Shown here piece by piece: positions 3,276-35,528 of a DNA stretch of 64,000 nucleotides (positions within the stretch are counted from its first letter, which is position 1; each line of letters begins with the position of its first letter). A program made the translations under genes and the position numbers. The notes under the pieces were generated by a model that saw only the letters and a list, made by a program, of their open reading frames with translations, was not told the origin of the DNA and made no database searches. Origin of the DNA: a virus (taxonomy: Duplodnaviria > Caudoviricetes); IMG/VR virus record IMGVR_UViG_3300037067_022526, positions 73,763 to 137,762 of that record; one strand, given 5' to 3'.

Positions 3276-3518
3276 ATGAACGCGTTGCTTGTCGGCAAGA
3301 GAGAAGAGGACGGTCAATTCCATGTTTACCACATGGCACTTTATCCCGAGACCCCAACTCAGGTTGACATAGACGATCTCCGTCGAGAATTATCTGAAAC
3401 CCCAGAATTTGGACTGATGGACAGAATAAGCGAAATGGAAATACGAGCCACAGTGCTGAGACCAGAGGCGGGACAGCCGCCACCGGAAAACAAGGAGAGT
3501 GAAAAATGTGGAACTTGA
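3276..3518 (+). CDS. hypothetical protein
   Basis: RBS ggag. Confidence 0.6.
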   Translation: MNALLVGKREEDGQFHVYHMALYPETPTQVDIDDLRRELSETPEFGLMDRISEMEIRATVLRPEAGQPPPENKESEKCGT

Positions 3519-4696: not shown

Positions 4697-4994
4697 TAGA
4701 ATAGAACCATTTCTGGGCATCCTTGGTAATATCTGGAAAAACAATCCAGAATTAAGATTTGGACAATTAATCTCTCTTGCTTTTGGTTTGTTTTCCGGAC
4801 AAACATATGATGGTCGATTATGGCATGTAGAAGATGACGATTTTCTTGAGCGGCTGATGGAAAATATGTCTATATCTAGAGATAATCTTACTAAACCAGA
4901 AATAGAGCAACGATTAGCAGAATTAAAAGAACCAATTCGAGGAGAAATTATGGATTTGGCTATATTTGAAGGCGAAGACTGGAGATTAAAATGA
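4683..4994 (+). CDS. DUF1040/YihD-like phage protein
   Basis: MRxPxRI...WxxxPxLRFGQL motif. Confidence 0.6.
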   Translation: MRRPDRIEPFLGILGNIWKNNPELRFGQLISLAFGLFSGQTYDGRLWHVEDDDFLERLMENMSISRDNLTKPEIEQRLAELKEPIRGEIMDLAIFEGEDWRLK

Positions 4995-7161: not shown

Positions 7162-7869
7162 GTGAAAATGTATATTAAAGATGGATCAAATATTGATTAC
7201 GGCAGTAAGGAACCTATGAAAAATAGGTATTCATGGGGATGGCTAGGATCAAAAATCTCCTGGGAAAGTAGGGGATGGAAAGATATTGAACTCAAAAATA
7301 AAGTCATTAATCGGCTAAAAGAGATAGACGACGCATTCGAATGGGAAACCAGTTCATTTGATGGCAAACAATACAGAAAACCAACTTATCAAGTAATGCA
7401 CCATATGGGGTCTCATGAATGTGAAATATGTGGGGCTCGAACTCGCAAAGAAAAAACAAAAGCCGCTAAAAATTATCGAGAGTGGATGTCCATACAATCC
7501 CAGCAGGAGAATAAACCTGAGACTATTAAAAATTTCAATGGTAGCCATATCATATATTACAATGGGTTAGAATTTCGTTGTCCTGCTGGTGTTTATCACT
7601 ATATAGAAGAACATGATTATAATCCTGGTCCAAAAGTTATCGATGCTATTTTTAATGGTCGAGTAGCAACCTCTGATGAAATTGATGGTAAAATCAGAGA
7701 AGAAATGCACAAAATGGCAGAAGAAATTGGACGTAAAAACGCAGAGGAAGCAGCCGCCAGAGAAGCAGCCAAATCTCCGGAACAAAAACAATATGAGTCT
7801 TGGGTTAAAACCAAAATCGAACAATTGCGCAAATCAGGTGCTATCATTGGTAGTGTAGAGAAAGAATAG
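7162..7869 (+). CDS. hypothetical protein
   Basis: GSHECEIC and HYIEEHDYNP motifs. Confidence 0.65.
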   Translation: MKMYIKDGSNIDYGSKEPMKNRYSWGWLGSKISWESRGWKDIELKNKVINRLKEIDDAFEWETSSFDGKQYRKPTYQVMHHMGSHECEICGARTRKEKTKAAKNYREWMSIQSQQENKPETIKNFNGSHIIYYNGLEFRCPAGVYHYIEEHDYNPGPKVIDAIFNGRVATSDEIDGKIREEMHKMAEEIGRKNAEEAAAREAAKSPEQKQYESWVKTKIEQLRKSGAIIGSVEKE

Positions 7870-8953: not shown

Positions 8954-9176
8954 GGAAGAAATTGTGTACTTTGATTTAAAAACAGATTATTATGGTTGGC
9001 CCATTGAACATATTATTGGTCATCCTGTTTCCAATTGGACACGACACATTATTCAACTGCTTCGGAAATGGCTCCATTTACACAAAGTTGAAAATAAGAA
9101 GATATAGTTGTCAAAAAAGGTATGAACAATAATTGTTCCGAATTATAACTTCGGTAATCTTTAACAGGAGAAATGT

Positions 9177-23942: not shown

Positions 23943-24533
23943 TTATTTATGCATGTAAATTGTGGCATCGTTGTTTAGATATTCTTGTTTTATGACTACA
24001 TTATTGGAAATCGATTTGCAATAACTCAATATTTCATCTGGATCTCTATATATATAATCATCTAGTTTGTGTTTTGCGTGAATGCTTATAAAATTAAATG
24101 CTACGCCTATTTTACATAACTTAAACATTTTGTCGATGGTCGCCCACATCCATTCTGTGTGATGTGCTGTTGGACTACTGAAAATTCCTGATGCTACTAC
24201 ATAGTCAAATTGCGAATCAATGGTTTCATCGAGAATATCCAACACAAAAACATTTGCATCGGGATATCTCTGTTTTGCTATTTGTATTCTTGCCGGATCG
24301 ATATCAACTCCGGTATAATTTGTATCCCTCTGTATGTGCTTGAACAAATCTGCGTATCCGCATCCTACATCTAAAACGGTTTTATGCGACCAGTCACCGA
24401 TCCCCTTAAGTATATCAAACCGAGTTTCTTGAGTGCAACAGCTATACCATCCGAGTATTTTGGGATGTTCGGAGAACATATCAGACAGTATCGCATTAAA
24501 ATTTATGATTTCAAGTTTATCTTCTTCAAACAT
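23943..24533 (-). CDS. class I SAM-dependent methyltransferase
   Basis: VLDVGCG, YTGVDI, FDYVVASGIF. Confidence 0.85.
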   Translation of the reverse strand: MFEEDKLEIINFNAILSDMFSEHPKILGWYSCCTQETRFDILKGIGDWSHKTVLDVGCGYADLFKHIQRDTNYTGVDIDPARIQIAKQRYPDANVFVLDILDETIDSQFDYVVASGIFSSPTAHHTEWMWATIDKMFKLCKIGVAFNFISIHAKHKLDDYIYRDPDEILSYCKSISNNVVIKQEYLNNDATIYMHK

Positions 24534-24573
24534 GATATATTATACACTTTTGAAAAATTTTAGAGGAATCTGC

Positions 24574-24601
24574 TTGACTTCCGGTGAATAGTGGGTATAA
24601 T
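24574..24601 (+). promoter_or_regulatory. sigma70-type promoter of the tRNA operon
   Basis: TTGACT-N16-TATAAT. Confidence 0.75.
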
Positions 24602-24647
24602 TAGGCAGTCGCGCCTTGATAGGCGTGTGGATTGTAAGGAGATTATC

Positions 24648-24716
24648 GTGAAACGAGAGCTAGACAGATTATATTGTTTGCTGGATTGGTACCTCCGAAA
24701 GGAGGTGGCTGCCTAA
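24648..24716 (+). CDS. putative attenuator leader peptide MKRELDRLYCLLDWYLRKEVAA
   Basis: RBS AAGGAG, GTG start; central codons match the downstream tRNAs. Confidence 0.75.
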   Translation: MKRELDRLYCLLDWYLRKEVAA

Positions 24717-24752
24717 GACTCGTTTCGCTTTTTCTATGAGTCCCCGGTAGCC
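24707..24752 (+). promoter_or_regulatory. antiterminator hairpin overlapping the leader stop codon
   Basis: GGCTGCC/GGTAGCC and GACTC/GAGTC pairings sequester the terminator 5' strand. Confidence 0.65.
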
Positions 24753-24778
24753 CAAGAGCTTCCGGGGACTTTTCTTTT
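24739..24778 (+). terminator. intrinsic terminator (attenuator) just before the first tRNA
   Basis: AGTCCCCGG...CCGGGGACT 9-bp stem then TTTCTTTT. Confidence 0.85.
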
Positions 24779-24779
24779 G

Positions 24780-24854
24780 GGCAGAGTAGACCAATTGGCA
24801 GGAGTCGCAAAGCTCAAACCTTTGAATGTGCGGGTCCGAGTCCCGCCTCTGCTA
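24780..24854 (+). tRNA. tRNA-Leu(CAA), short variable loop
   Basis: GGCAGAG/CTCTGCT acceptor; CAAAG-CTCAAAC-CTTTG; A73. Confidence 0.8.
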
Positions 24855-24861
24855 TTTTTTT

Positions 24862-24936
24862 GGCCGGGTAGACCAACGGCAGGAGTCGTCGAGCTTAGAA
24901 CTCGAACAGTGTTGGGTTCAAATCCCACCCCGGCTA
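24862..24936 (+). tRNA. tRNA-Leu(TAG), short variable loop
   Basis: GGCCGGG/CCCGGCT; TCGAG-CTTAGAA-CTCGA; TTCAAAT T-loop. Confidence 0.8.
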
Positions 24937-24939
24937 TTC

Positions 24940-25032
24940 GCAGGAGAGGCCACTGTTGGATATGAGTGGCGCGAGACTGTAAATCTCGTCCCTTTGTGGT
25001 AAACATCGGCGGTTCGATTCCGTCCTCCTGCA
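24940..25032 (+). tRNA. tRNA-Tyr(GTA)
   Basis: GCAGGAG/CTCCTGC; CGAGA-CTGTAAA-TCTCG; long variable arm. Confidence 0.85.
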
Positions 25033-25046
25033 TTTTCAAAATATTT

Positions 25047-25121
25047 GGGCTATTGGAGGAGTCTGGAGTCCTCATCTCCCTGTCACGGAGAAAATCATGG
25101 GTTCAAATCCCATATAGCCCG
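25047..25121 (+). tRNA. tRNA-Asp(GTC)
   Basis: GGGCTAT/ATAGCCC; TCTCC-CTGTCAC-GGAGA; G73. Confidence 0.9.
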
Positions 25122-25126
25122 TAAAT

Positions 25127-25200
25127 GGCGACGTAGACCAACGGCAGGAGTCATCAAGCTTAAGCCTTGAACAGTGTGAGTTCGAATCTCACCGTCGCTA
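25127..25200 (+). tRNA. tRNA-Leu(TAA), short variable loop
   Basis: GGCGACG/CGTCGCT; TCAAG-CTTAAGC-CTTGA; TTCGAAT. Confidence 0.85.
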
Positions 25201-25204
25201 TTTT

Positions 25205-25273
25205 AGGACAGCCAGCAGCCTGGACCTGAGACTCCAAATCTCAGAGGAAGGGGGCAGCACCCTTCTGGTCCTG
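25205..25273 (+). tRNA. non-canonical tRNA-Trp(CCA)
   Basis: AGGAC/GTCCT acceptor with G73; CTGAGA-CTCCAAA-TCTCAG; 4-nt D-loop; T-loop GGCAGCA. Confidence 0.6.
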
Positions 25274-25334
25274 TTGTCTCAATCAACACAAGGAGAACAA
25301 AGATGAGAGACTAGATGAAAATCACTGTGATAGG

Positions 25335-25688
25335 ATGTATTATTGTGACACAAAAACATGGGAAACGGTTGGACCCACGACCATCCAAAAAATTTGGTGG
25401 GGACTAGAGATATGCACTTTTGGATGGCATATAGACAATTGGTGGGAGCATTGGGGAATCAGTATTTGCTGGTCGTCTCATTGGGTAGGACAGTCAAAGT
25501 GGTGGGATTTTGTGGTTACATGGGGCAGGCAATACCGTGGCCGAGTTAAGTATTATTTCAAGAGATTTGAAAAATCGCAGTTTCCTAAGTGGCTTGGCAA
25601 TCAATGTCGGCTGCCCTTTGGACTACGTTCTTTTCATCTTTATCTTAATAAACAGAATGTCCCATTCTATCTTCGGTTGTCGTGGTAA
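25335..25688 (+). CDS. Trp-rich hypothetical protein inside the tRNA array
   Basis: 117 aa, 14 Trp. Confidence 0.55.
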   Translation: MYYCDTKTWETVGPTTIQKIWWGLEICTFGWHIDNWWEHWGISICWSSHWVGQSKWWDFVVTWGRQYRGRVKYYFKRFEKSQFPKWLGNQCRLPFGLRSFHLYLNKQNVPFYLRLSW

Positions 25689-25694
25689 ACAAAA

Positions 25695-25765
25695 GACTCA
25701 GTGGATGAGCGGATAGTCTCAAGTCTGCAAAACTTGCTACGCGGGTTCGAATCCCGCCTGAGTCT
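25695..25765 (+). tRNA. tRNA-Cys(GCA)
   Basis: GACTCAG/CTGAGTC; CAAGT-CTGCAAA-ACTTG; U73. Confidence 0.85.
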
Positions 25766-25819
25766 TATATATCACATTATTCCGCTTGACTTTTTTTGAA
25801 TCTGTGTTATCATATCTGC

Positions 25820-26425
25820 ATGAAACAATATCCGACCATTTCGAAAGTGATTCGCCGAGATATTGATATCTATGCGTTTGATAAGTTCGACGGGTCTAAT
25901 ATTCGAGCAGAATGGACAAGAAAGAATGGGTTTTTTAAGTTTGGTAGCAGAAACGTGTTAATCGATGATAAGCACAAAGATCTTGGCAAATCGATTTCTT
26001 TGATGCAGTCCAAATACGAAGACGATTTAAGTAATATATTCCGCAAAGAGCGATTTGACAAAGTTACCTGCTTTTTTGAATTCTTTGGACCGAATTCATT
26101 TGGCGGACAGCATAACCCAAACGATGACCATTCAATTATTTTGCTTGATATCAATCCGCACAAAAGGGGCATATTAGACCCCCGACAATTCTTGAAAATG
26201 GTTGGACATTTGGACGTTCCACGACTATTATATCAAGGTAAGGCAAATGCCGAATTCGAGAATTCAGTTCGGGATAGTTCTATAAATATTACTTTTGAAG
26301 GTGTTGTTTGTAAAGGCATGTATCGTAATACCTTAGTAATGTTCAAAATTAAAAGTAATGCATGGATCGAAAAGCTAAAACAATTTTGTGGCGGTGATCT
26401 AAAATTGTTTGAGGAATTGTATTGA
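25820..26425 (+). CDS. ATP-dependent RNA ligase-like nucleotidyltransferase
   Basis: motif I DKFDGSN, FFEFFG, FEGVVCK, MFKIK; ATG 6 nt after a -10 box. Confidence 0.7.
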   Translation: MKQYPTISKVIRRDIDIYAFDKFDGSNIRAEWTRKNGFFKFGSRNVLIDDKHKDLGKSISLMQSKYEDDLSNIFRKERFDKVTCFFEFFGPNSFGGQHNPNDDHSIILLDINPHKRGILDPRQFLKMVGHLDVPRLLYQGKANAEFENSVRDSSINITFEGVVCKGMYRNTLVMFKIKSNAWIEKLKQFCGGDLKLFEELY

Positions 26426-28478: not shown

Positions 28479-28502
28479 CAAATAATACATTTGAGGTATA
28501 AT
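28475..28502 (+). promoter_or_regulatory. sigma70-type promoter
   Basis: TTGACA-N16-TATAAT. Confidence 0.7.
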
Positions 28503-28520
28503 AGAAGAAGAGGACGAAGA

Positions 28521-28979
28521 ATGTATGCGCTTTATGCAGATGGGTCGTGTCAGCCCAATCCCGGTACTGGTGGCTGGGCCTATATATTAAAGTGCCCCGA
28601 TGGCACAGAACTGGTAGGTTCGGGATTTGAAAACGAATCTACCAACAACCGGATGGAGTTACGATCCGTCATTGAGGGATTGTATGTTTTTAAACAAACA
28701 GCGCCTGTCAACGAGCAATTGACCCTTATCTTGGATAGTAAATACGTTCTGGATGGTATTTCGATCTGGAGTAAAAAATGGGTAAAACAGGGTTGGATTA
28801 AGAAAAATGGAAAGCCAGTTTTAAATGAAAATTTATGGAAAGAACTAATCTTTCTCGCTTCGAATATCAAAATGAAGTTTGAGCACGTAAAAGGGCATAC
28901 CGGACATCCTGAAAACGAAAGATGCGACAAATTGGCGGTTCAGGCAGCAAAAAGAAGCATTGCAAAGGAGCAGAGATGA
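28521..28979 (+). CDS. rnhA: ribonuclease HI
   Basis: YADGSC, TNNRMEL, DSKYV, HVKGHTGHPENERCD. Confidence 0.93.
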   Translation: MYALYADGSCQPNPGTGGWAYILKCPDGTELVGSGFENESTNNRMELRSVIEGLYVFKQTAPVNEQLTLILDSKYVLDGISIWSKKWVKQGWIKKNGKPVLNENLWKELIFLASNIKMKFEHVKGHTGHPENERCDKLAVQAAKRSIAKEQR

Positions 28980-29323
28980 AATTCATTCGAAAATCTTCGG
29001 CCACCAGAAATAAATCGCTTTTTCCTAGATACTATTGTTCCGGGAACGGATACGATACATGGGAGATTGATATTTTGCAGGGACATCGAAGAACAGAAAG
29101 TCTTGCTAAGTTTCGGGTAGTCAAATCGGGTGATAATTTGTCCATTGAACGCAATGTAATTAATAAACCCAATAAAACATTTCCAGTTACATCCCTAAAA
29201 AATACAGATAAAATGTCTGTATCAGAAGAGGTAATGTTTCGAACAGCATATTGTGAGGCACAAGTTCTTGCGATAGAATATACCAGAAAAATACAAGAGA
29301 AATATACAAGTGAGACACGATGA
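28976..29323 (+). CDS. hypothetical protein
   Basis: RBS aaggag, ATGA overlaps. Confidence 0.55.
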   Translation: MKFIRKSSATRNKSLFPRYYCSGNGYDTWEIDILQGHRRTESLAKFRVVKSGDNLSIERNVINKPNKTFPVTSLKNTDKMSVSEEVMFRTAYCEAQVLAIEYTRKIQEKYTSETR

Positions 29324-30327
29324 GCAGAGATTTTTATGAGATATTAGGTGTTTCAAAATCTGCTTCTCAAGATGAAATTAAAAGTGCTTATCGAAAACTC
29401 GCCAAAGAATGGCATCCCGATAAGCACTCCGAGGATAAGAAAAAAGAAGCAGAAATTAAATTTAAAGAAATTGCTGCAGCTTATGAAACGCTAATTGATT
29501 CTGATAAAAGGCAGAAATACGACCAATTTGGGGAAGATGGAAATAAGTTTACATCTGGATGGAGTTCTCATGTTGATATAGACGATATGGGATTTGGATT
29601 CTTTGGAAGGCGAAAACCCCAGAGGGGAGAAGATATAAAAATACTTGTTCCCCTAACCCTGGAAGAGTCTGCCACTGGCATTACTAAAACCATAGATGTT
29701 CCCCGAAATGATATATGCGACAAATGCAAGGGTGCCGGTGGCACAGGATCTGCCTGTTCCGCGTGTGGAGGACAGGGTCGGGTTCAACAGAAACATCCTA
29801 TGGGAATATCTATATCAACCTGTCCAGCTTGTTGGGGCGAAGGAGTCAGAATCACAACGCAATGTCCTAATTGCTCTGGTGCAGGATATACTACATCATC
29901 TAAGCAAATCGAAATTAAAATACCACCCGGAGTTGATACGGGCGAAGCAATTTTAATTCAACACGAGGGACACAGAAGTATTTATGATACTCCAAGAGGC
30001 CACGTTTATTTTGTGATGAAAATAAGTTCACATCCCAATTTTACTAGGGATAATATCACAATACGATCCCGTGCTAAAATTCCCATAACTACGGCAATAC
30101 TTGGGGGGAAGATACCAGTAAATACCATCTATGGAACTCAAATGGAATTAAAAATACCGCCAGGAACTCAGCCATCGGCAACTTTCCGAATGAAGGGTAA
30201 AGGGATAAAGAAGAACAATCTCATAGGTGATCATCTTATAGAAGTGCAGGTTGAAATACCTCAGAAAATGTCCGATGAAGCTAAAGACGCATTCCAAAAG
30301 TTTGCCAATATCTATAAGAAACGGTAG
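29320..30327 (+). CDS. dnaJ: DnaJ chaperone
   Basis: J domain with HPD, four CxxCxGxG repeats, C-terminal domain. Confidence 0.93.
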   Translation: MSRDFYEILGVSKSASQDEIKSAYRKLAKEWHPDKHSEDKKKEAEIKFKEIAAAYETLIDSDKRQKYDQFGEDGNKFTSGWSSHVDIDDMGFGFFGRRKPQRGEDIKILVPLTLEESATGITKTIDVPRNDICDKCKGAGGTGSACSACGGQGRVQQKHPMGISISTCPACWGEGVRITTQCPNCSGAGYTTSSKQIEIKIPPGVDTGEAILIQHEGHRSIYDTPRGHVYFVMKISSHPNFTRDNITIRSRAKIPITTAILGGKIPVNTIYGTQMELKIPPGTQPSATFRMKGKGIKKNNLIGDHLIEVQVEIPQKMSDEAKDAFQKFANIYKKR

Positions 30328-30342
30328 AAGGTGATTTAAAAT

Positions 30343-30382
30343 AACCGCGAGTGGAATTCTAGCAATTTTCCGCCCGCGGTTT
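30343..30382. terminator. hairpin between convergent dnaJ and sigma genes
   Basis: AACCGCGAGTGGAA...TTCCGCCCGCGGTT. Confidence 0.55.
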
Positions 30383-30422
30383 CTTTAGATGTGCATCTTT
30401 TTTGAGTCTGCTAGTTTGGTGC

Positions 30423-31175
30423 TCATTCCAGAGTTGGATCTGCCTTCATATATTGGCGTAATTTATTAACCCCGTCCGCTTGTATTTGTCGTATTCGTTC
30501 CTTAGATAAGTTATAAATTTGGCTAACTATTTCTAGAGTATTTTTCGTATCAGTGAACCTGAGACCAATTATTGCCCGCTCTCTACTGGTTAAATTGGCA
30601 GAGATAAGAGCAGATTCTAATCTATCTTTATATAGTTCTAAATTCTCATCTTCTTGTTTCTCAATAGGATCAAATTCGGATATATCGAGAGCATTGTGTT
30701 TGTTGTGTTGTCTCGCGGCGGCATTAAAACGGTATAGGATTGATCGGCATGCGTAAGTACTGAATTTAAATCCTCGCCACGGATCAAACGATTCTGCTGC
30801 AGATATCAGCGCCAAAGAACCATCGCTAACAAGCGTATCTCTATCAACTCCATTCACTGATGTTTTCTGGATACAGTCATAAACTAACGACATGTTGGCT
30901 GTTATTATACGATTGCGAATTATATCTGTAACTTTTTTCCAGAAGAATGTATCTCTATTTTCCTGCATTTCACAATATAGCCTCCATTTAGCGTAGTGAA
31001 ATGCCTTAAAGTAAATTATTTCATCTTTTACTACTTCGTCTGGATATGATAATGAAATTGAATTTTCGCTGATACCAATTGGCGATAAAAAAATCGATGA
31101 AGCATTGGGGTTCTGGAATTCTGCCACCGCACTTTTGTTGAACTTAATTGTGTTCGACTCATTTGTTTTACTCAT
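30423..31175 (-). CDS. sigma-70 family sigma factor
   Basis: region 2 ANMSLV and FDPWRGFKFSTYA; region 4 TLEIVS...LSKERIRQIQ. Confidence 0.88.
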   Translation of the reverse strand: MSKTNESNTIKFNKSAVAEFQNPNASSIFLSPIGISENSISLSYPDEVVKDEIIYFKAFHYAKWRLYCEMQENRDTFFWKKVTDIIRNRIITANMSLVYDCIQKTSVNGVDRDTLVSDGSLALISAAESFDPWRGFKFSTYACRSILYRFNAAARQHNKHNALDISEFDPIEKQEDENLELYKDRLESALISANLTSRERAIIGLRFTDTKNTLEIVSQIYNLSKERIRQIQADGVNKLRQYMKADPTLE

Positions 31176-31182
31176 AGTGGGC

Positions 31183-31266
31183 ATTATACCACATTGGCAC
31201 CGGATGTCAAGACATTTTAGGATTCATGGGTTTTTTGATTGACAAATGCCTATTTAGTGGTATACT
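31183..31266. promoter_or_regulatory. divergent sigma70-type promoters for sigma factor and rtcB
   Basis: minus TTGACA-N16-TATAAT (31210-31183); plus TTGACA-N16-TATACT (31239-31266). Confidence 0.75.
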
Positions 31267-31273
31267 GTGCTAT

Positions 31274-32638
31274 ATGAAAGCAAAAGAATTGTTAAACATC
31301 GGGTACAAAGAAGGTCCGGTAATTGGAATCGCCCTAAAGGCGACTCAAAATGCCAAGGCACACGGTATGCACGCTCAAGAAATTAGAGATATTGTGCGCT
31401 ACATTCTGTCTGACCCATCGACCTATTTGAATCACCCCCAATTGGGGATTATTGCACAATATTTAGAATCACAAAAGCGACCTGCATACGATTTTTCTGA
31501 TAAAGAATTTTCAATATTCGGGAAAGAACTAGTTGATGAAAATACGCTAGAGCAAATGAAAAATTGCATGAGATTGCCAATCTCAGTCGCAGGGGCAACG
31601 ATGCCTGACGCACATGTCGGGTATGGTTTGCCGATCGGTGGAGTTTTAGCAACTGATAATTCGATAATACCTTTTGCCGTCGGGGTCGATATAGCCTGTC
31701 GTATGATGCTTACAGTGTTGCCAATGCCAGCGTCAGATATTGGTAAATATCGAGATGATTTTCATAAATTAATTGGGAAGCACACTCGATTCGGATTGGG
31801 AGCATCATATGAAAATAAATTAGAGCACGAAGTAATGGATGATGACTGGAGTTTTTCTCCCATAGTTAAACAGGTAAAAGATTTGGCCTGGGAACAGCTT
31901 GGAACTCAGGGCGGAGGCAACCATTTCTGTGATGTTGGAGAAATAGATCTGGCCGGAAATAAATATATTGCAATAATTACTCATTCTGGTTCTCGCGGTC
32001 CCGGAAATAAAATTGCAACTTACTATTCTGATTTGGCTAAATCTTTACGTCCATTTTTGCCAAATGAATATAAACACTTGGCCTGGTTGGATATGGATAG
32101 CGATGAAGGAGTTGAGTATTGGCGCGCAATGCACCTAATGGGTAGATATGCATCTGCGAGCCATCACTTAACACATGAGGGTTTTCTGAGTGGACTAAAA
32201 GTAGAGCCACTTCTACAAGTTGAGAATCACCACAATTTCTGCTGGAAAGAAATTGTAAATGGACGCGAACTTTATGTTCATCGAAAGGGTGCTACTCCTG
32301 CCCAATCAGGAGTACTGGGGATAATACCCGGAAGCATGGCTACGCCGGGGTTTTTAGTAAAAGGTAAAGGCAATTTATTGTCTCTTAATTCCGCTTCTCA
32401 CGGAGCAGGGAGAGCCAAAAGTCGTAAAGCCACCAAAGAATCTACTCGATGGAGCCACGTCAGAGCAATGCTCAAAGAGCGTGGCGTGGAATTGCTTGGA
32501 GCAGGATTGGATGAGGCACCAACTGGCTACAAGCCAATTCGGGATGTCATGAATGCTCAGAAAGATTTGGTTGAAATCATAGCTGAGTTCACGCCTCGTA
32601 TCGTAATGATGGCAGAAGACGGGTCTTCTGAAGATTAA
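31274..32638 (+). CDS. rtcB: RtcB RNA ligase
   Basis: MPDAHVGYG, VGVDIAC, GGGNHF, HHN, HRKGAT, SHGAGR. Confidence 0.93.
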   Translation: MKAKELLNIGYKEGPVIGIALKATQNAKAHGMHAQEIRDIVRYILSDPSTYLNHPQLGIIAQYLESQKRPAYDFSDKEFSIFGKELVDENTLEQMKNCMRLPISVAGATMPDAHVGYGLPIGGVLATDNSIIPFAVGVDIACRMMLTVLPMPASDIGKYRDDFHKLIGKHTRFGLGASYENKLEHEVMDDDWSFSPIVKQVKDLAWEQLGTQGGGNHFCDVGEIDLAGNKYIAIITHSGSRGPGNKIATYYSDLAKSLRPFLPNEYKHLAWLDMDSDEGVEYWRAMHLMGRYASASHHLTHEGFLSGLKVEPLLQVENHHNFCWKEIVNGRELYVHRKGATPAQSGVLGIIPGSMATPGFLVKGKGNLLSLNSASHGAGRAKSRKATKESTRWSHVRAMLKERGVELLGAGLDEAPTGYKPIRDVMNAQKDLVEIIAEFTPRIVMMAEDGSSED

Positions 32639-33594
32639 TATACAGCGTAAGGCAAATTAAATGCAGCACCGTATTGCAATAGCATGTTTTCTAGATACAC
32701 ATTGAGAGGCCCATTAGATTGCATTGTATCGACTGAATTCCCACATTGATTTTTTGGTTCCGGGCTCAGTATTGGACTAGGTATACTGACTTTTGCCTTA
32801 TTCCAGTTGTTCGCTCCAATATCTTCTATTAGAATTTTTCTAATCTCCTCATCTGATGGAACAGCAACATTCGGATCTATAACAAAATTAAGTCCCATTC
32901 TATTTGTCCACTCTCTAATTCGGCGTATGGGTATTATCAAGTTAAAAGTTTCACCGCCACCACGAACAAGCATTCCGACGTATTCTCCATTTTCTTCGAG
33001 GAAAATGCCACCGCCAGATGACCCCGGCAAAGCAGTGCAGCTTGTCTGGTCATAGATTTTTCCATCATATATTCTACCAATAGAATTAATAATACCATTA
33101 GTCAGAGAATTGCTTCCGAATTCACCCCGTAGCGATCCAACATGATATAGCCTTGTTCCTATCTTGGGTATATCATTGCTCAAATAAAATGTGGCGCTCT
33201 CTGTTGCGAAATTTTTCTTTATGATTTGCAACAACGCCAAATCTTCTCCGCTGTCAGCATTTGAGTATGAGATTACTTTTGCAGTCATCTCCACTTGTCC
33301 CACTTTTCTGCCGTCTTCGTATACATTTTGAATTATACTTGCATCATTAAATTCAACAACAGTCCGATCCATCCCTGAATCTATCACGGATCTGGTTTTT
33401 CGCAGAGATGAAACCACATGCCCCGCTGTTAGAACGAAATTATATTCACCTCGTTTAACAATAACACCCGAGCCCTCACTTCCTCCGGCTTTGATTGTCA
33501 CAGAGACAGATTGTAATTTTTCTGCCACTGTATCCGCAATTGTAACCAAAGGAAAAACTAACAGTAAAAATATCCCAATTAGAGTTTTAGACAT
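32635..33594 (-). CDS. secreted trypsin-like (S1) serine protease
   Basis: signal peptide; TAGH, DLALL, GSSGGG. Confidence 0.85.
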   Translation of the reverse strand: MSKTLIGIFLLLVFPLVTIADTVAEKLQSVSVTIKAGGSEGSGVIVKRGEYNFVLTAGHVVSSLRKTRSVIDSGMDRTVVEFNDASIIQNVYEDGRKVGQVEMTAKVISYSNADSGEDLALLQIIKKNFATESATFYLSNDIPKIGTRLYHVGSLRGEFGSNSLTNGIINSIGRIYDGKIYDQTSCTALPGSSGGGIFLEENGEYVGMLVRGGGETFNLIIPIRRIREWTNRMGLNFVIDPNVAVPSDEEIRKILIEDIGANNWNKAKVSIPSPILSPEPKNQCGNSVDTMQSNGPLNVYLENMLLQYGAAFNLPYAVY

Positions 33595-33626
33595 GACTGG
33601 TCTCCTTTGTATGGGCCTTCTATGAA

Positions 33627-35528
33627 TTATACCTGACGATACACGTCAAGTTCTCCGGAGTCTATCATATTCTTGACAATTTGTTCAGCCTGCTCTTCTG
33701 TTAATAATGGATTTTTTATCTGTTCATCTCTAATTTTGTTTCTAACGAATTGTATGTAGCCAATCCTTCCTTCTGGTGGTCGCCCTGGTTCAATACCAAC
33801 AATAGACTGGACCCGTTCTCTGGATAGTATCTGAGGTAAAAACGATTTGGCAATTTCTACAGCCTTTGTTTTTTGCTCATCGACCGATAAAACCTGGGCA
33901 ATTCCAAAGTTTCTATACTGTGCCTGCCGTATGGCATTCATTATCTCGCCTATTATTTTGCCCGGCTTAATACCGAGCAATCGTTGAATTTCATTCCCGT
34001 TCAACAATATTGGTAAATTTATCTTTTCAATTCTCTGAATTGTTTTATCGTATTCGCGGGCTTCGCCCATATCTGGCTGTTCGTGCTTAGACATCGCATC
34101 AGCCATGGCGTGAATATATATTATTTTCCAAAGCGGGTTTTTGTCCTTAAACTCCGCTATTTGGGCTGCATTATCTCGATTTCTAATATGGTCATGAGGC
34201 TGCATATGAGATGAAATAATACCACTAACGGATGATTTTTCTTGGTTTGACATCCTCATTGCATCAGAAAATCTGCTCCAGATTTCGTTACTAGATTCCT
34301 CGTGAGACATTTTCTGCCCTTTCGGCAGATTGGGATTCCCGGAGTATCCGATTTCTCCAGTTGGCTTTACCTTCTGTGTCCGTGGATCAAGTTTCCCAAA
34401 ATCGTGAAATAATGAAGCCATATTAAGCAGCATTCTTTCCATTGGAGAAAGATTATATTGTTTAGCTAATTTATTGGCGTTCTTAAGCACTCTAAGGGTA
34501 TGATTGATTAAATTCATGCTGTGATGCACATTTCTCTGATCCATGTGTAATGGATTAAATGATTGCGGCAAACGAAGCATATTAGATAAAAGCCCGCATT
34601 GGTACATAATTCTCATGGCATCTGCAGGACGATCCCCAGACATGATTTTCCTAAATTCGTCTGCTATCTTTTCTACGACTATGCCCTTCGACGCAGGATC
34701 GAACATTTTATTGGTCAGTAATTTTTGTGCGTTTTCATCAAACATGGATTCTTTTGTTGGTTCGTCTAATATCGCTTGAGAATATTTACTAAAGAATCGA
34801 AGAACCCTCAACAGCCTCGTTGGATCATCTATGAATATACGCCGAGCCTCTATTTGTTGCCAATCATCATCACTAATATTATCGGGTTTTCCACCGTCAT
34901 ACCCAGCAGGGATTGAGGGTGTTCTTAGCTTCATTTGGGCCAAATCAGGAAATCCACCGGTATAATCTTCTATTGTATTTTCATTTAAATTATAGAACAT
35001 GGCGTTAATAGTCAGATCTCTCCTGAACGCATCATCCCAGGGTTTGCCCGGGACAACGATCGGATTTCTCACTAGTTTTTCTCCGGTATTTGGATCTGTC
35101 CAAATTTCTTTTCTTAAACTTACTACGTCAATCGGCAATCCAAATATAGAGATTTGTCCGGCTGCAATTCGTTTGACTTGTTCATCTTTGGTCCGGAACT
35201 CTGCATTTAATATTCTAACATAATTTTGTGCTGTCCCAAATTTTCGATCCGCAAAACTTTTTAGTCCGTTAACAAAATCTATACCGGAAACTGAATCCAC
35301 GGTTATGTCAATATCTTTAGGATTTGTGGTCGATTTAATATCTGGCCTGGCTATGGGCAATAGTTTATCCCTCGTCCATCCTCCGGCCACTCTTACAATC
35401 GGATGAGATGGCATGGTTTGCACTGCTTCAAGAATGAAATTAAAAACTTTTTGTTCCTCGGGAGTCCGCGAAATCTGTATTCCTTCCAAGATGGGTCCGT
35501 TGATTTTGTTACTTAAAATCTTTAACAT
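33627..35528 (-). CDS. cca: CCA-adding tRNA nucleotidyltransferase with HD domain
   Basis: AGGWTRD, DID, RRDLTINAM, DDPTRLLR, LFHDFGK. Confidence 0.85.
   Translation of the reverse strand: MLKILSNKINGPILEGIQISRTPEEQKVFNFILEAVQTMPSHPIVRVAGGWTRDKLLPIARPDIKSTTNPKDIDITVDSVSGIDFVNGLKSFADRKFGTAQNYVRILNAEFRTKDEQVKRIAAGQISIFGLPIDVVSLRKEIWTDPNTGEKLVRNPIVVPGKPWDDAFRRDLTINAMFYNLNENTIEDYTGGFPDLAQMKLRTPSIPAGYDGGKPDNISDDDWQQIEARRIFIDDPTRLLRVLRFFSKYSQAILDEPTKESMFDENAQKLLTNKMFDPASKGIVVEKIADEFRKIMSGDRPADAMRIMYQCGLLSNMLRLPQSFNPLHMDQRNVHHSMNLINHTLRVLKNANKLAKQYNLSPMERMLLNMASLFHDFGKLDPRTQKVKPTGEIGYSGNPNLPKGQKMSHEESSNEIWSRFSDAMRMSNQEKSSVSGIISSHMQPHDHIRNRDNAAQIAEFKDKNPLWKIIYIHAMADAMSKHEQPDMGEAREYDKTIQRIEKINLPILLNGNEIQRLLGIKPGKIIGEIMNAIRQAQYRNFGIAQVLSVDEQKTKAVEIAKSFLPQILSRERVQSIVGIEPGRPPEGRIGYIQFVRNKIRDEQIKNPLLTEEQAEQIVKNMIDSGELDVYRQV

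Follow-up and report, generated by a model that had tools for sequence, protein, structure and literature searches.

The tRNA array of an uncultured 138-kb phage (137.8-kb genome) is preceded, directly on its 5' side, by a short leader ORF and a switchable terminator. The best reading of this arrangement, to which we give a probability of roughly three in four, is a multivalent leader-peptide attenuator that acts as a sensor of tRNA supply. Such a ribosome-dependent attenuator, whose control codons are the codons of the tRNAs that it gates, had been proposed in a first-pass annotation of this DNA. The proposal is supported by the anatomy of the element, by the match between leader codons and array, by a family of nine covarying homologous leaders in which the geometry and composition of the ORF are conserved, by a masking model of ribosome position, by an independent analogue in another phage (L004) and by a test over 129 tRNA arrays. 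No published case of leader-peptide attenuation for tRNA genes was found in the literature. The window analysed is a stretch of 64,000 nucleotides of this genome; coordinates below are positions in it, and all the promoter, leader, tRNA and RNA-ligase features lie on its + strand.

A sigma-70-type promoter, TTGACT-16-TATAAT, is found at 24574..24601 and matches the consensus at 11 of 12 positions; homologous promoters of the form TTGAC(A/T)-17-TATAAT are present in the relatives described below. The gene upstream, which encodes a methyltransferase (23943-24533), is divergent from the array, so that this is the sole strong promoter feeding it. Consensus scoring revealed no promoter above 9/12 between the terminator and the ligase gene and, given the divergent gene upstream, the array should be expressible only by read-through of the terminator. 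The leader transcript carries a 5'-proximal stem-loop of 7 bp with a tetraloop (24610..24627), which is part of the minimum free energy (MFE) structure. In single-sequence folds, most relatives also have a 5' hairpin, of a sequence unrelated to that of the window, L014 being the clear exception. A Shine-Dalgarno (SD) sequence, AAGGAG (24636..24641), lies 6 nt 5' of a GTG start codon at 24648. This codon, 47 nt after the -10 box, opens a leader ORF of 22 codons plus TAA (24648..24716), encoding MKRELDRLYCLLDWYLRKEVAA. The promoter, the ribosome-binding site and the ORF had all been called at first pass, and each was confirmed. Folding also gave a hairpin in the 3' part of the ORF (UACCUCC-GAAA-GGAGGUG, 24690..24707), which abuts the antiterminator arm on its 5' side. 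A hairpin is found at the same place in single-sequence folds of most relatives; alignment A3 gave no clear register for it.

The array itself starts with tRNA-Leu(CAA) (24780..24854, 75 nt) and tRNA-Leu(UAG) (24861..24937), followed by tRNA-Tyr(GUA) (24943..25032), tRNA-Asp(GUC) (25046..25122), tRNA-Leu(UAA) (25126..25201) and, further downstream, tRNA-Cys(GCA) (25694..25766). The three leucine tRNAs have a short variable arm, and all the genes in this list apart from tRNA-Tyr were detected by both ARAGORN and Rfam. The tRNA-Tyr gene has an unusual long D stem and was found by ARAGORN at a relaxed threshold only. In Rfam, it gave only a 31-bit match to the tRNA-Sec model, under the gathering score of that family (47). 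It is homologous to the tRNA-Tyr of the relatives, and can be aligned with its counterparts in L014 and L099. The list drawn up at first pass is therefore correct for these genes; its remaining member, a tRNA-Trp, is unconfirmed as a tRNA. At the corresponding place, 25204..25272, there is a putative tRNA-like cloverleaf (-28 kcal/mol) with a CCA anticodon in a CUCCAAA anticodon loop. Its D loop and T loop are non-canonical, it was missed by ARAGORN in bacterial mode and by Rfam, and it is unlike the tRNA-Trp of the relatives.

An RNA ligase gene (25820..26425) lies 3' of the array, with a promoter-like site at 25786-25813. Its product has a KxDG motif and belongs to phrog_548; homologs carry PF09414. 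RtcB and a CCA-adding enzyme are further products of this genome. A tryptophan-rich ORF at 25335-25688 has no match in Pfam or PHROG and no homolog in the relatives. An alternative genetic code, with TAG read through, was considered for 25304-25716 and set aside, as translation by table 11 fills the window with normal ORFs. The second tRNA array of the genome (Ile, Phe, Lys, Lys) is without a leader and directly follows an XRE-like gene.

The putative sensing core of the leader, codons 5-15 (24660..24692), reads CTA GAC AGA TTA TAT TGT TTG CTG GAT TGG TAC. Ten of these 11 codons are cognate to the array, all ten are different, and they cover all seven anticodons. When compared with every stop-free 11-codon window in the six frames of the 137.8-kb genome (160,524 in total), it was the single most extreme. 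A second locus reached 10/11 (30860-30931, 8 distinct codons); as it lies within a sigma-factor gene on the antisense strand, it was put down to chance. The first-pass reading of codons 5-16, with 10 of 12 readable by the array and AGA and CTC not, agrees exactly with ours. Non-cognate codons, for K, R and E, are present within the codon 2-14 zone of this leader.

The leader fold has an energy of -69.8 kcal/mol (z = -5.0), and none of 200 shuffled sequences was equally stable. Three alternative pairings had been claimed, and folding recovered all of them. In the MFE structure, region 1 (24648..24657), the 5' arm of an anti-antiterminator, pairs over 10 bp with region 2 (24719..24728), its 3' arm, which overlaps the lower helix of the antiterminator. 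The antiterminator (24705..24753, -20.9 kcal/mol) pairs 24707-13 with 24746-52 and 24717-23 with 24736-42, and the stop codon (24714-16) sits in its internal loop. The intrinsic terminator (24738..24778, -23.5 kcal/mol) has a stem formed by 24738-47 and 24762-71, with 3 inner bp, and is followed by UUUUCUUUU, ending at 24778. Its U tract (24770-24778) ends 1-2 nt before the first tRNA, which starts at 24780. About 63 nt separate the stop codon from the last position of the U tract, similar to the spacing of about 70 nt in trp. Antiterminator and terminator have 24738-24752 in common, and are thus mutually exclusive. In the thermodynamic MFE of the full leader it is always the terminator that prevails, so that the switch would have to rely on co-transcriptional kinetics. 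Both these structures are conserved in the relatives. The third pairing, the 1:2 helix 24648-57/24719-28, is specific to the window. The MFE structures of the relatives contain no counterpart of it, and in these folds the relatives look like two-state switches.

The relatives are nine homologous leaders from metagenomes, reached via homologs of the RNA ligase (53-62% identical); a dedicated covariance model, R1, defines the leader family. In each of the nine, a promoter, an SD sequence and an ORF of 18-22 codons are followed by a terminator with its U tract, and the stop codon of the ORF lies in or beside the antiterminator arm. The first gene behind the leader is the RNA ligase, and after it come arrays with four to five Leu tRNAs and Tyr, Asp, Cys and Trp tRNAs. 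Terminators range from -20 to -27 kcal/mol and end about 15-20 nt before the start of the ligase gene, with no strong promoter between. Despite 58% identity per column, all ten leaders keep the SD spacing, the start codon and the open frame. Both helices are supported by covariation in the 10-sequence alignment. For the antiterminator, 92.7% of the cells are paired and 7 of 11 pairs are compensatory (0/500 shuffles; slid controls at most 49%), and for the terminator 92.3% are paired and 9 of 13 pairs are compensatory (0/500 shuffles). Alignment columns 74-86 are used by both.

The composition of the leader peptides was biased. L, D, Y, C and W make up 116 of the 194 codons of the ten leaders, versus a background of 21%, and 77% of the core codons versus 22% of the last six (Fisher 4e-13), the ten homologous leaders being non-independent samples in both counts. 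No Ile, Asn or Gln codon occurs in any of the ten. The order of the residues is scrambled whereas their composition is conserved, and the set of enriched residues is identical to the set of five specificities that the arrays provide. Codons for Ser (AGC/AGT/TCA) and for Phe also recur in the leaders of the relatives, without a cognate tRNA in the arrays; a tRNA-Ser(GCU) or tRNA-Phe that could explain them was sought in these arrays and not found.

Other sources yielded no further leaders. When close relatives of the phage were sought by DNA among GenBank phages, only matches at the level of tRNAs were obtained. A search of IMG/VR for the exact terminator sequence gave none, scans of the same database that used the methyltransferase or the ligase as a single protein query added no members, and 80 loci retrieved there with a ligase profile were all without the leader. 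A search of IMG/VR with the leader DNA pattern returned 13 loci, with model scores at chance level only. Four more ligase homologs were looked up by identity, and the leader was absent wherever DNA was retrieved. GTDB genomes contained 18 ligase loci, none with the leader, and they therefore give no clue to the host.

An analogous arrangement was found in L004, an unrelated 424-kb phage which has two leaders, and each of these matches the array that it precedes. Of the core codons, 15/21 and 19/23 are cognate to the leader's own array, versus 2/21 and 1/23 cognate to the other one. The match extends to the Ser codons: AGY is used five times before Ser(GCU), and UCN seven times before Ser(GGA/UGA/CGA) (P = 0.0013). 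A terminator, and an antiterminator that spans the stop codon, are present in both leaders. Across 129 arrays, seven upstream short ORFs had at least 6/9 cognate codons, versus 2.2 expected from shuffled arrays (P about 0.003). Co-variation of leader codons with anticodon sets, which the first pass had suggested as a check, is thus seen strictly in L004 and weakly in the global survey; within the leader family, tRNA set and leader composition alike are conserved.

To describe how a ribosome on the leader might act on the switch, the ten leaders were folded by a partition-function model with the ribosome footprint masked. When the A site was placed anywhere from codon 2 to about codon 14, the terminator 5' arm remained paired upstream and the antiterminator stayed intact, in 10/10 leaders; for the leader of the window, this held for codons 2-15. 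From about codon 15 to the stop, the antiterminator was disrupted and upstream pairing dropped, again in 10/10. This measure never reaches zero, since local pairing is open to the terminator arm. In the model, untranslated relatives default to read-through.

From sequence and modelling together, we infer that the leader ORF is translated and that stalling drives read-through. The transcript would start at the consensus promoter, and a ribosome would load on the 22-codon ORF. If decoding is fast, the ribosome would reach codons 16-22 or the stop and cover the 5' arm of the antiterminator (24707-24723). The terminator (24738-24771) and its U tract would then form, and the polymerase would stop 1-2 nt before tRNA-Leu(CAA). 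If decoding of any Leu, Asp, Tyr, Cys or Trp codon of the core (codons 5-15) is slow, the ribosome would stall upstream, the antiterminator would form first and sequester the terminator 5' arm, and the polymerase would read into the tRNA genes. Since the control codons are decoded by the same tRNAs that the gated genes yield, the circuit would be a negative-feedback homeostat of tRNA supply, with OR logic over seven anticodons. In the window, the extra helix 24648-57/24719-28 would impose termination also when the leader is untranslated. In the relatives, the homologous element would gate an operon of RNA ligase and tRNA genes.

A switch of this kind could also be real, with its leader translated, and report general translation capacity or transcription-translation coupling instead of sensing particular tRNAs, the codon bias being secondary. 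bmrCD, a drug-responsive ribosome-mediated attenuator, is triggered by slowed ribosomes. Here too, the structural logic needs only a slow ribosome anywhere in codons 2-14, a zone that includes non-cognate codons (K, R and E in the window, S and F in the relatives), and the relatives, without the 1:2 helix, would read through by default if untranslated. We nevertheless consider this explanation unlikely, given a core with 77% L/D/Y/C/W versus 21%, devoid of I, N and Q, and enriched in precisely the residues that the arrays serve. Moreover, the two leaders of L004, which share one genome, differ in composition as their respective arrays do, even in the choice of Ser codon family.

It is less probable still, by about half, that translation plays no part in the control of the switch, which would respond to a protein, to a small ligand or to T-box-like direct binding of tRNA, and that the ORF is incidental. 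Covariation backs the two helices, and not translation as such. However, SD spacing, start codon, a frame of 18-22 codons and a stop codon within or next to the 5' arm of the antiterminator are kept in ten leaders out of ten, and the composition bias is restricted to the core of the ORF. Neither a T-box nor another Rfam family was matched, no specifier-loop or T-box-like motif was seen, and in 24400-26000 there was no T-box match in Rfam up to E = 1. Marginally the least probable is that the 172-nt leader is a separate sRNA or micropeptide gene whose terminator is constitutive and which senses nothing, the tRNAs arising from leak or from unrecognised internal promoters: its promoter-to-terminator unit is complete by itself and terminated leader RNAs can act in trans, as rnTrpL does in Sinorhizobium (PMC6614838), but a conserved, covarying antiterminator overlapping the terminator would be pointless in a constitutive unit, the unconserved peptide order argues against a functional micropeptide, and the terminator ends 1-2 nt from the first tRNA, or about 15-20 nt from the ligase gene in the nine relatives, with no strong promoter between.

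Read as an attenuator that senses tRNA supply, the element resembles trpL, hisL, leuL, pheL, thrL and ilvL in its promoter-proximal ORF of control codons, with a stop beside the antiterminator 5' arm, and shares with the enterobacterial amino-acid attenuators a mutually exclusive antiterminator and intrinsic terminator. The classical 1:2/2:3/3:4 arrangement is predicted for the window, whereas the MFE folds of the relatives lack the 1:2 helix. Being multivalent is a trait in common with ilvL (Ile/Leu/Val) and thrL (Thr/Ile). Unlike the amino-acid attenuators, it is borne by a phage, and it would control tRNA genes, with an RNA ligase in the relatives, rather than biosynthetic enzymes. Its output would be the sensed molecule itself, a direct feedback on tRNA supply, and it addresses five amino acids and seven anticodons by mostly single, different codons instead of runs. 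The pheMST attenuator and the T-box likewise tune a component of translation to the supply of charged tRNA through a choice between terminator and antiterminator. However, pheM responds to a single amino acid and regulates a synthetase, the T-box binds uncharged tRNA directly without a ribosome, and the regulated product is not a tRNA in either.

The role of phage-borne tRNAs has been a matter of debate for decades, and codon compensation, replacement of host tRNA that has been degraded and evasion of tRNA-cleaving defences have been proposed (PMC10264068). Phage tRNAs and RNA repair are known to oppose host tRNA nucleases, T4 Rnl1/Pnk acting against PrrC, and tRNAs against PtuAB of Retron-Ec78 and AriB of PARIS (PMC10264068, PMC12409363, PMC13056530). 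Our phage is similar in having replacement tRNAs beside an RNA ligase, in a genome with RtcB and a CCA-adding enzyme. The known systems are, however, described as expressed by the phage programme, and no sensing of damage or demand is described for their tRNA genes (PMC10264068, PMC12409363, PMC13056530). Possible causes of a shortage of the five tRNA species are host anticodon nucleases, phage-induced loss of host tRNAs, or codon demand. With an RNA ligase, RtcB and a CCA-adding enzyme as genomic context, the array may be linked to host tRNA cleavage of the PrrC or PARIS type; no nuclease was identified whose target set matches Leu/Tyr/Asp/Cys/Trp. We offer only tentatively, and with more doubt than belief, the broader idea that several unrelated phage lineages carry sensors of tRNA demand, in the form of leader peptides composed of the codons of a tRNA block downstream. 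Loss of the matching host tRNAs, including by anticodon-nuclease cleavage, would there cause ribosome stalling and only then release nuclease-resistant tRNAs and a repair ligase, as an inducible counter-defence that feeds back directly on the tRNA pool.

The element is compact (about 170 nt) and has consensus bacterial signals, which makes it testable in E. coli, and it may serve as a codon-specific reporter of decoding speed. The identity of the control codons with the codons of the gated tRNAs implies that the phage would gauge decoding speed at these codons and supply tRNAs on demand. Leader-peptide attenuation would thereby be extended from amino-acid biosynthesis to the tRNA pool itself, and the coupling to RNA ligase in the nine relatives suggests that one possible input is tRNA damage. 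For the biology of these phages, the attenuator would provide a testable handle on which tRNAs become limiting in infection.

The 246-nt intergenic region between the tRNA array and a divergent methyltransferase gene (23943-24533, minus strand) lies in the right-hand 64 kb, here the window, of a 137,762 bp IMG/VR record having inverted terminal repeats. It contains a near-consensus promoter, TTGACT-16-TATAAT (24574-24601, 11/12 consensus matches), a 5' stem-loop (24610-24627), an AAGGAG Shine-Dalgarno (SD) sequence (24636-41), a 22-codon leader ORF with a GTG start, MKRELDRLYCLLDWYLRKEVAA (24648-24716), and a GC-rich terminator hairpin of −23.5 kcal/mol (24738-24771), then UUUUCUUUU. The first-pass annotation, made from sequence alone, had read this succession of promoter, ribosome binding site, 22-codon ORF and terminator with U tract as a leader-peptide attenuator sensing the tRNAs it controls, and all these elements were found where it had placed them. 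The complete leader folds at −69.8 kcal/mol (z = −5.0), and none of 200 shuffles was equally stable. According to ARAGORN, tRNA-Leu(CAA) starts at 24780, 1-2 nt past the U tract. Because a promoter scan found none scoring above 9/12 between the terminator and the ligase gene, the array should be expressible only via terminator read-through.

Codons 5-15 of the leader are CTA GAC AGA TTA TAT TGT TTG CTG GAT TGG TAC. Of these 11 core codons, ten have a cognate anticodon in the array; none of the ten is repeated, and jointly they cover all seven anticodons. When all stop-free 11-codon stretches of the whole genome were scanned in six frames (n = 160,524), no other was as extreme as this core, whose 10 cognate codons are all distinct. 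The proposed codon match was thus borne out, AGA and CTC being non-cognate; CTC is codon 16, and a modelled stall there no longer favours the antiterminator. One other locus reached 10/11 (8 distinct), a 23-codon ORF, MFSGYSHKLTTCWLLLYDCELYL, at 30860-30931 (plus strand), antisense within a sigma-factor gene. We rejected it as a second sensing leader; the match is taken as chance and serves as an empirical false-positive rate.

Folded from the RNA preceding the terminator 3' arm, the antiterminator has an energy of −20.9 kcal/mol and pairs 24707-13 with 24746-52 and 24717-23 with 24736-42, the internal loop containing the stop codon. In the full untranslated leader, the start-codon region (24648-57) pairs with 24719-28, freeing the terminator. 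Ribosome position was modelled by masking a 30-nt footprint and measuring upstream pairing of the terminator 5' arm. This pairing was ~0.78 for an A site at codons 2-14 and ~0.4-0.5 from codon 16 to the stop, compared with 0.43 without ribosome. Folding and ribosome masking in the window therefore match the logic initially proposed, that of the 1:2 (anti-antiterminator), 2:3 (antiterminator) and 3:4 (terminator) helices.

DNA searches for relatives of the window returned nothing close. The adjacent RNA ligase gene (25820-26425) belongs to phrog_548, and its homologs number in the hundreds. Through the contexts of these homologs, nine distinct metagenome loci with a homologous leader were found (L014, L016, L098, L099, L106, L107, L116, L121 and L136), with ligase identities of 53-62%. 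Each has a TTGAC(A/T)-17-TATAAT promoter, an SD sequence and an 18-22 codon ORF, whose stop codon falls within or next to a conserved segment, G(C/A)CU(G/A)CCUAGAC, and a 5' hairpin of unrelated sequence is usually present. Their terminators (−20 to −27 kcal/mol) are followed by a U tract, and the ligase starts ~15-20 nt further. On the longer contigs, the tRNA arrays comprise 4-5 Leu isoacceptors with Tyr, Asp and Cys and, in most cases, Trp. The order is leader, ligase, tRNAs in the relatives and leader, tRNAs, ligase in the window, which makes the window a rearranged member of the leader family. A covariance model, R1, recovered just the ten known leaders in the ~1.35 Mb of loci searched. 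Nascent RNA of the relatives folds by default into the antiterminator, which is lost only with a modelled ribosome at about codon 15 to the stop. The relatives therefore appear to be two-state switches; in these models, only the window has the 1:2 helix.

Covariation was tested on the alignment of the ten leaders, with 500 shuffles and slid controls. In the antiterminator helix (columns 30-36/80-86 and 39-42/74-77), 92.7% of cells were paired and 7/11 pairs were compensatory (0/500 shuffles, slid controls at most 49%). For the terminator helix (columns 74-86/94-106), the values were 92.3% and 9/13 (0/500 shuffles, slid controls at most 50%). Competition of two conserved, covarying helices for one strand is the hallmark of a transcriptional switch.

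The ten leader peptides have a common composition in differing order; the position of the single Trp, for example, varies between codons 9 and 17. The enriched residues are exactly the five for which the arrays carry tRNAs: L, D, Y, C and W account for 116 of the 194 leader codons versus 21% in the long ORFs of the phage, figures that describe one homologous family and not ten independent events. Their share drops from 77% in the core to 22% over the final six codons, which take part in the RNA helices (Fisher 4e-13). No Ile, Asn or Gln occurs. The relatives' leaders repeatedly contain Ser and Phe codons for which no cognate tRNA lies nearby.

Independent matching was sought upstream of 129 tRNA arrays from all collected loci. 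Short ORFs with at least 6/9 cognate codons numbered 7, versus 2.2 under shuffled array assignments (P ~0.003). The two best matches are on the same contig, L004 (IMGVR_UViG_3300037455_000543), which represents an unrelated phage and is 424 kb long. Its leader 1 (2800-2886, MKMLSLTILLLSSLLLSWLLRRSIVGTK) precedes Trp, six Leu and Ser(GCU) tRNAs, with 15/21 core codons cognate to its own array and 2/21 to the other; leader 2 (4787-4879, MNLQSYTSSCISICGQQSSIYCMYSIKTGG) precedes Tyr (two), Cys, Met, Ile, Ser(GGA/UGA/CGA) and Gln(CUG), with 19/23 and 1/23. These leaders are non-homologous, one per tRNA block, and both have a terminator and an antiterminator across the last codons and stop (elements 2800-2946 and 4787-4945). 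The first has five AGY Ser codons and the second seven UCN (P = 0.0013), the families matching the Ser anticodons behind each. Since the match reaches synonymous codon families, it argues that tRNAs, and not amino acids, would be sensed. The L004 leaders and, more weakly, the excess of codon-matched ORFs supply the leader/anticodon correlation across other arrays that the first-pass annotation had looked to. Other candidate codon-matched leaders are LVKVPKNLNKKKLHLNSLKVLNM (L060, ~9000-9083), ahead of Thr/Asn/Asn/Val/Lys, and an F/S/N-rich ORF (L073, ~3380-3475), ahead of Phe/Ser(GCU).

Seven tRNAs had been proposed in the window. Leu(CAA), Leu(UAG), Asp(GUC), Leu(UAA) and Cys(GCA) were called by ARAGORN and Rfam alike, and Tyr(GUA) (24943-25032), detected only at a relaxed threshold, is accepted because it aligns with tRNA-Tyr of two relatives. 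The seventh, Trp, is doubtful. This element (25204-25272) has a cloverleaf fold and a CUCCAAA anticodon loop with a CCA anticodon, but its 4-nt D loop and GGCAGCA T loop are non-canonical, it does not resemble the canonical tRNA-Trp of the relatives, and neither ARAGORN in bacterial mode nor Rfam detected it. It could represent a degenerate tRNA, a specialised one or else a decoy. In the array of L014, an ARAGORN-called tRNA (7404-7479) with an irregular anticodon loop containing CUAAA is possibly suppressor-like. The interval from the Trp-like element to tRNA-Cys holds a 117-codon ORF (25335-25688) with 14 Trp codons (12%). It matched nothing in Pfam or PHROG and has no homolog within the relatives' arrays, which likewise hold small ORFs among their tRNAs. 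A second array of the same genome, outside the window (G000:C1:10326-10634; Ile-UAU, Phe, Lys-CUU, Lys-UUU), is directly behind an XRE-like gene and has neither leader ORF nor terminator.

A long variable arm is the norm for bacterial tRNA-Leu. The three tRNA-Leu genes (24780-24854, 24861-24937, 25126-25201) are 75-77 nt long and of class I shape, their variable arm being short. They have a D-arm motif in common, GTAGACCAA(C/TT)GGCAGGAGTC, which 12 further IMG/VR contigs, most of them very large phages, also carry in their tRNA-Leu genes. The short-armed form might bear on LeuRS recognition, or on escape from class II-recognising nucleases.

What would make five tRNA species scarce? Genomic context suggests tRNA damage: the ligase is under the same leader element in the nine relatives, the window genome encodes RtcB (PF01139, 6e-73) and a CCA-adding enzyme with HD domain, and the tRNA-Leu genes lack the long variable arm. 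However, no nuclease with the target set Leu/Tyr/Asp/Cys/Trp was identified, and codon demand or phage-induced loss of host tRNAs is equally possible. Genes for RNA maintenance and host takeover cluster at 28491-35528: RNase H (28491-28979), DnaJ (29320-30327), a sigma-70-family factor (30423-31184, minus strand), RtcB RNA ligase (31226-32638), a trypsin-like peptidase (32635-33594, minus strand) and the CCA-adding enzyme (33627-35528, minus strand).

Whatever the cause of shortage, classical ribosome-mediated attenuation applied to tRNA genes is the best-supported model. Fast decoding of the leader would lead to termination, while slow decoding of any control codon would allow read-through and yield new tRNA, closing a negative feedback loop. 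In a full-text literature search, leader-peptide attenuators were found only for biosynthetic, resistance and ribosomal genes and none for phage or bacterial tRNA genes, in keeping with the initial remark that such control is not known to have been described for phage tRNA arrays. The attenuation mechanism is thus familiar; the novelty lies in the tRNA genes as its target, in the direct feedback that would result and in its occurrence in phages.
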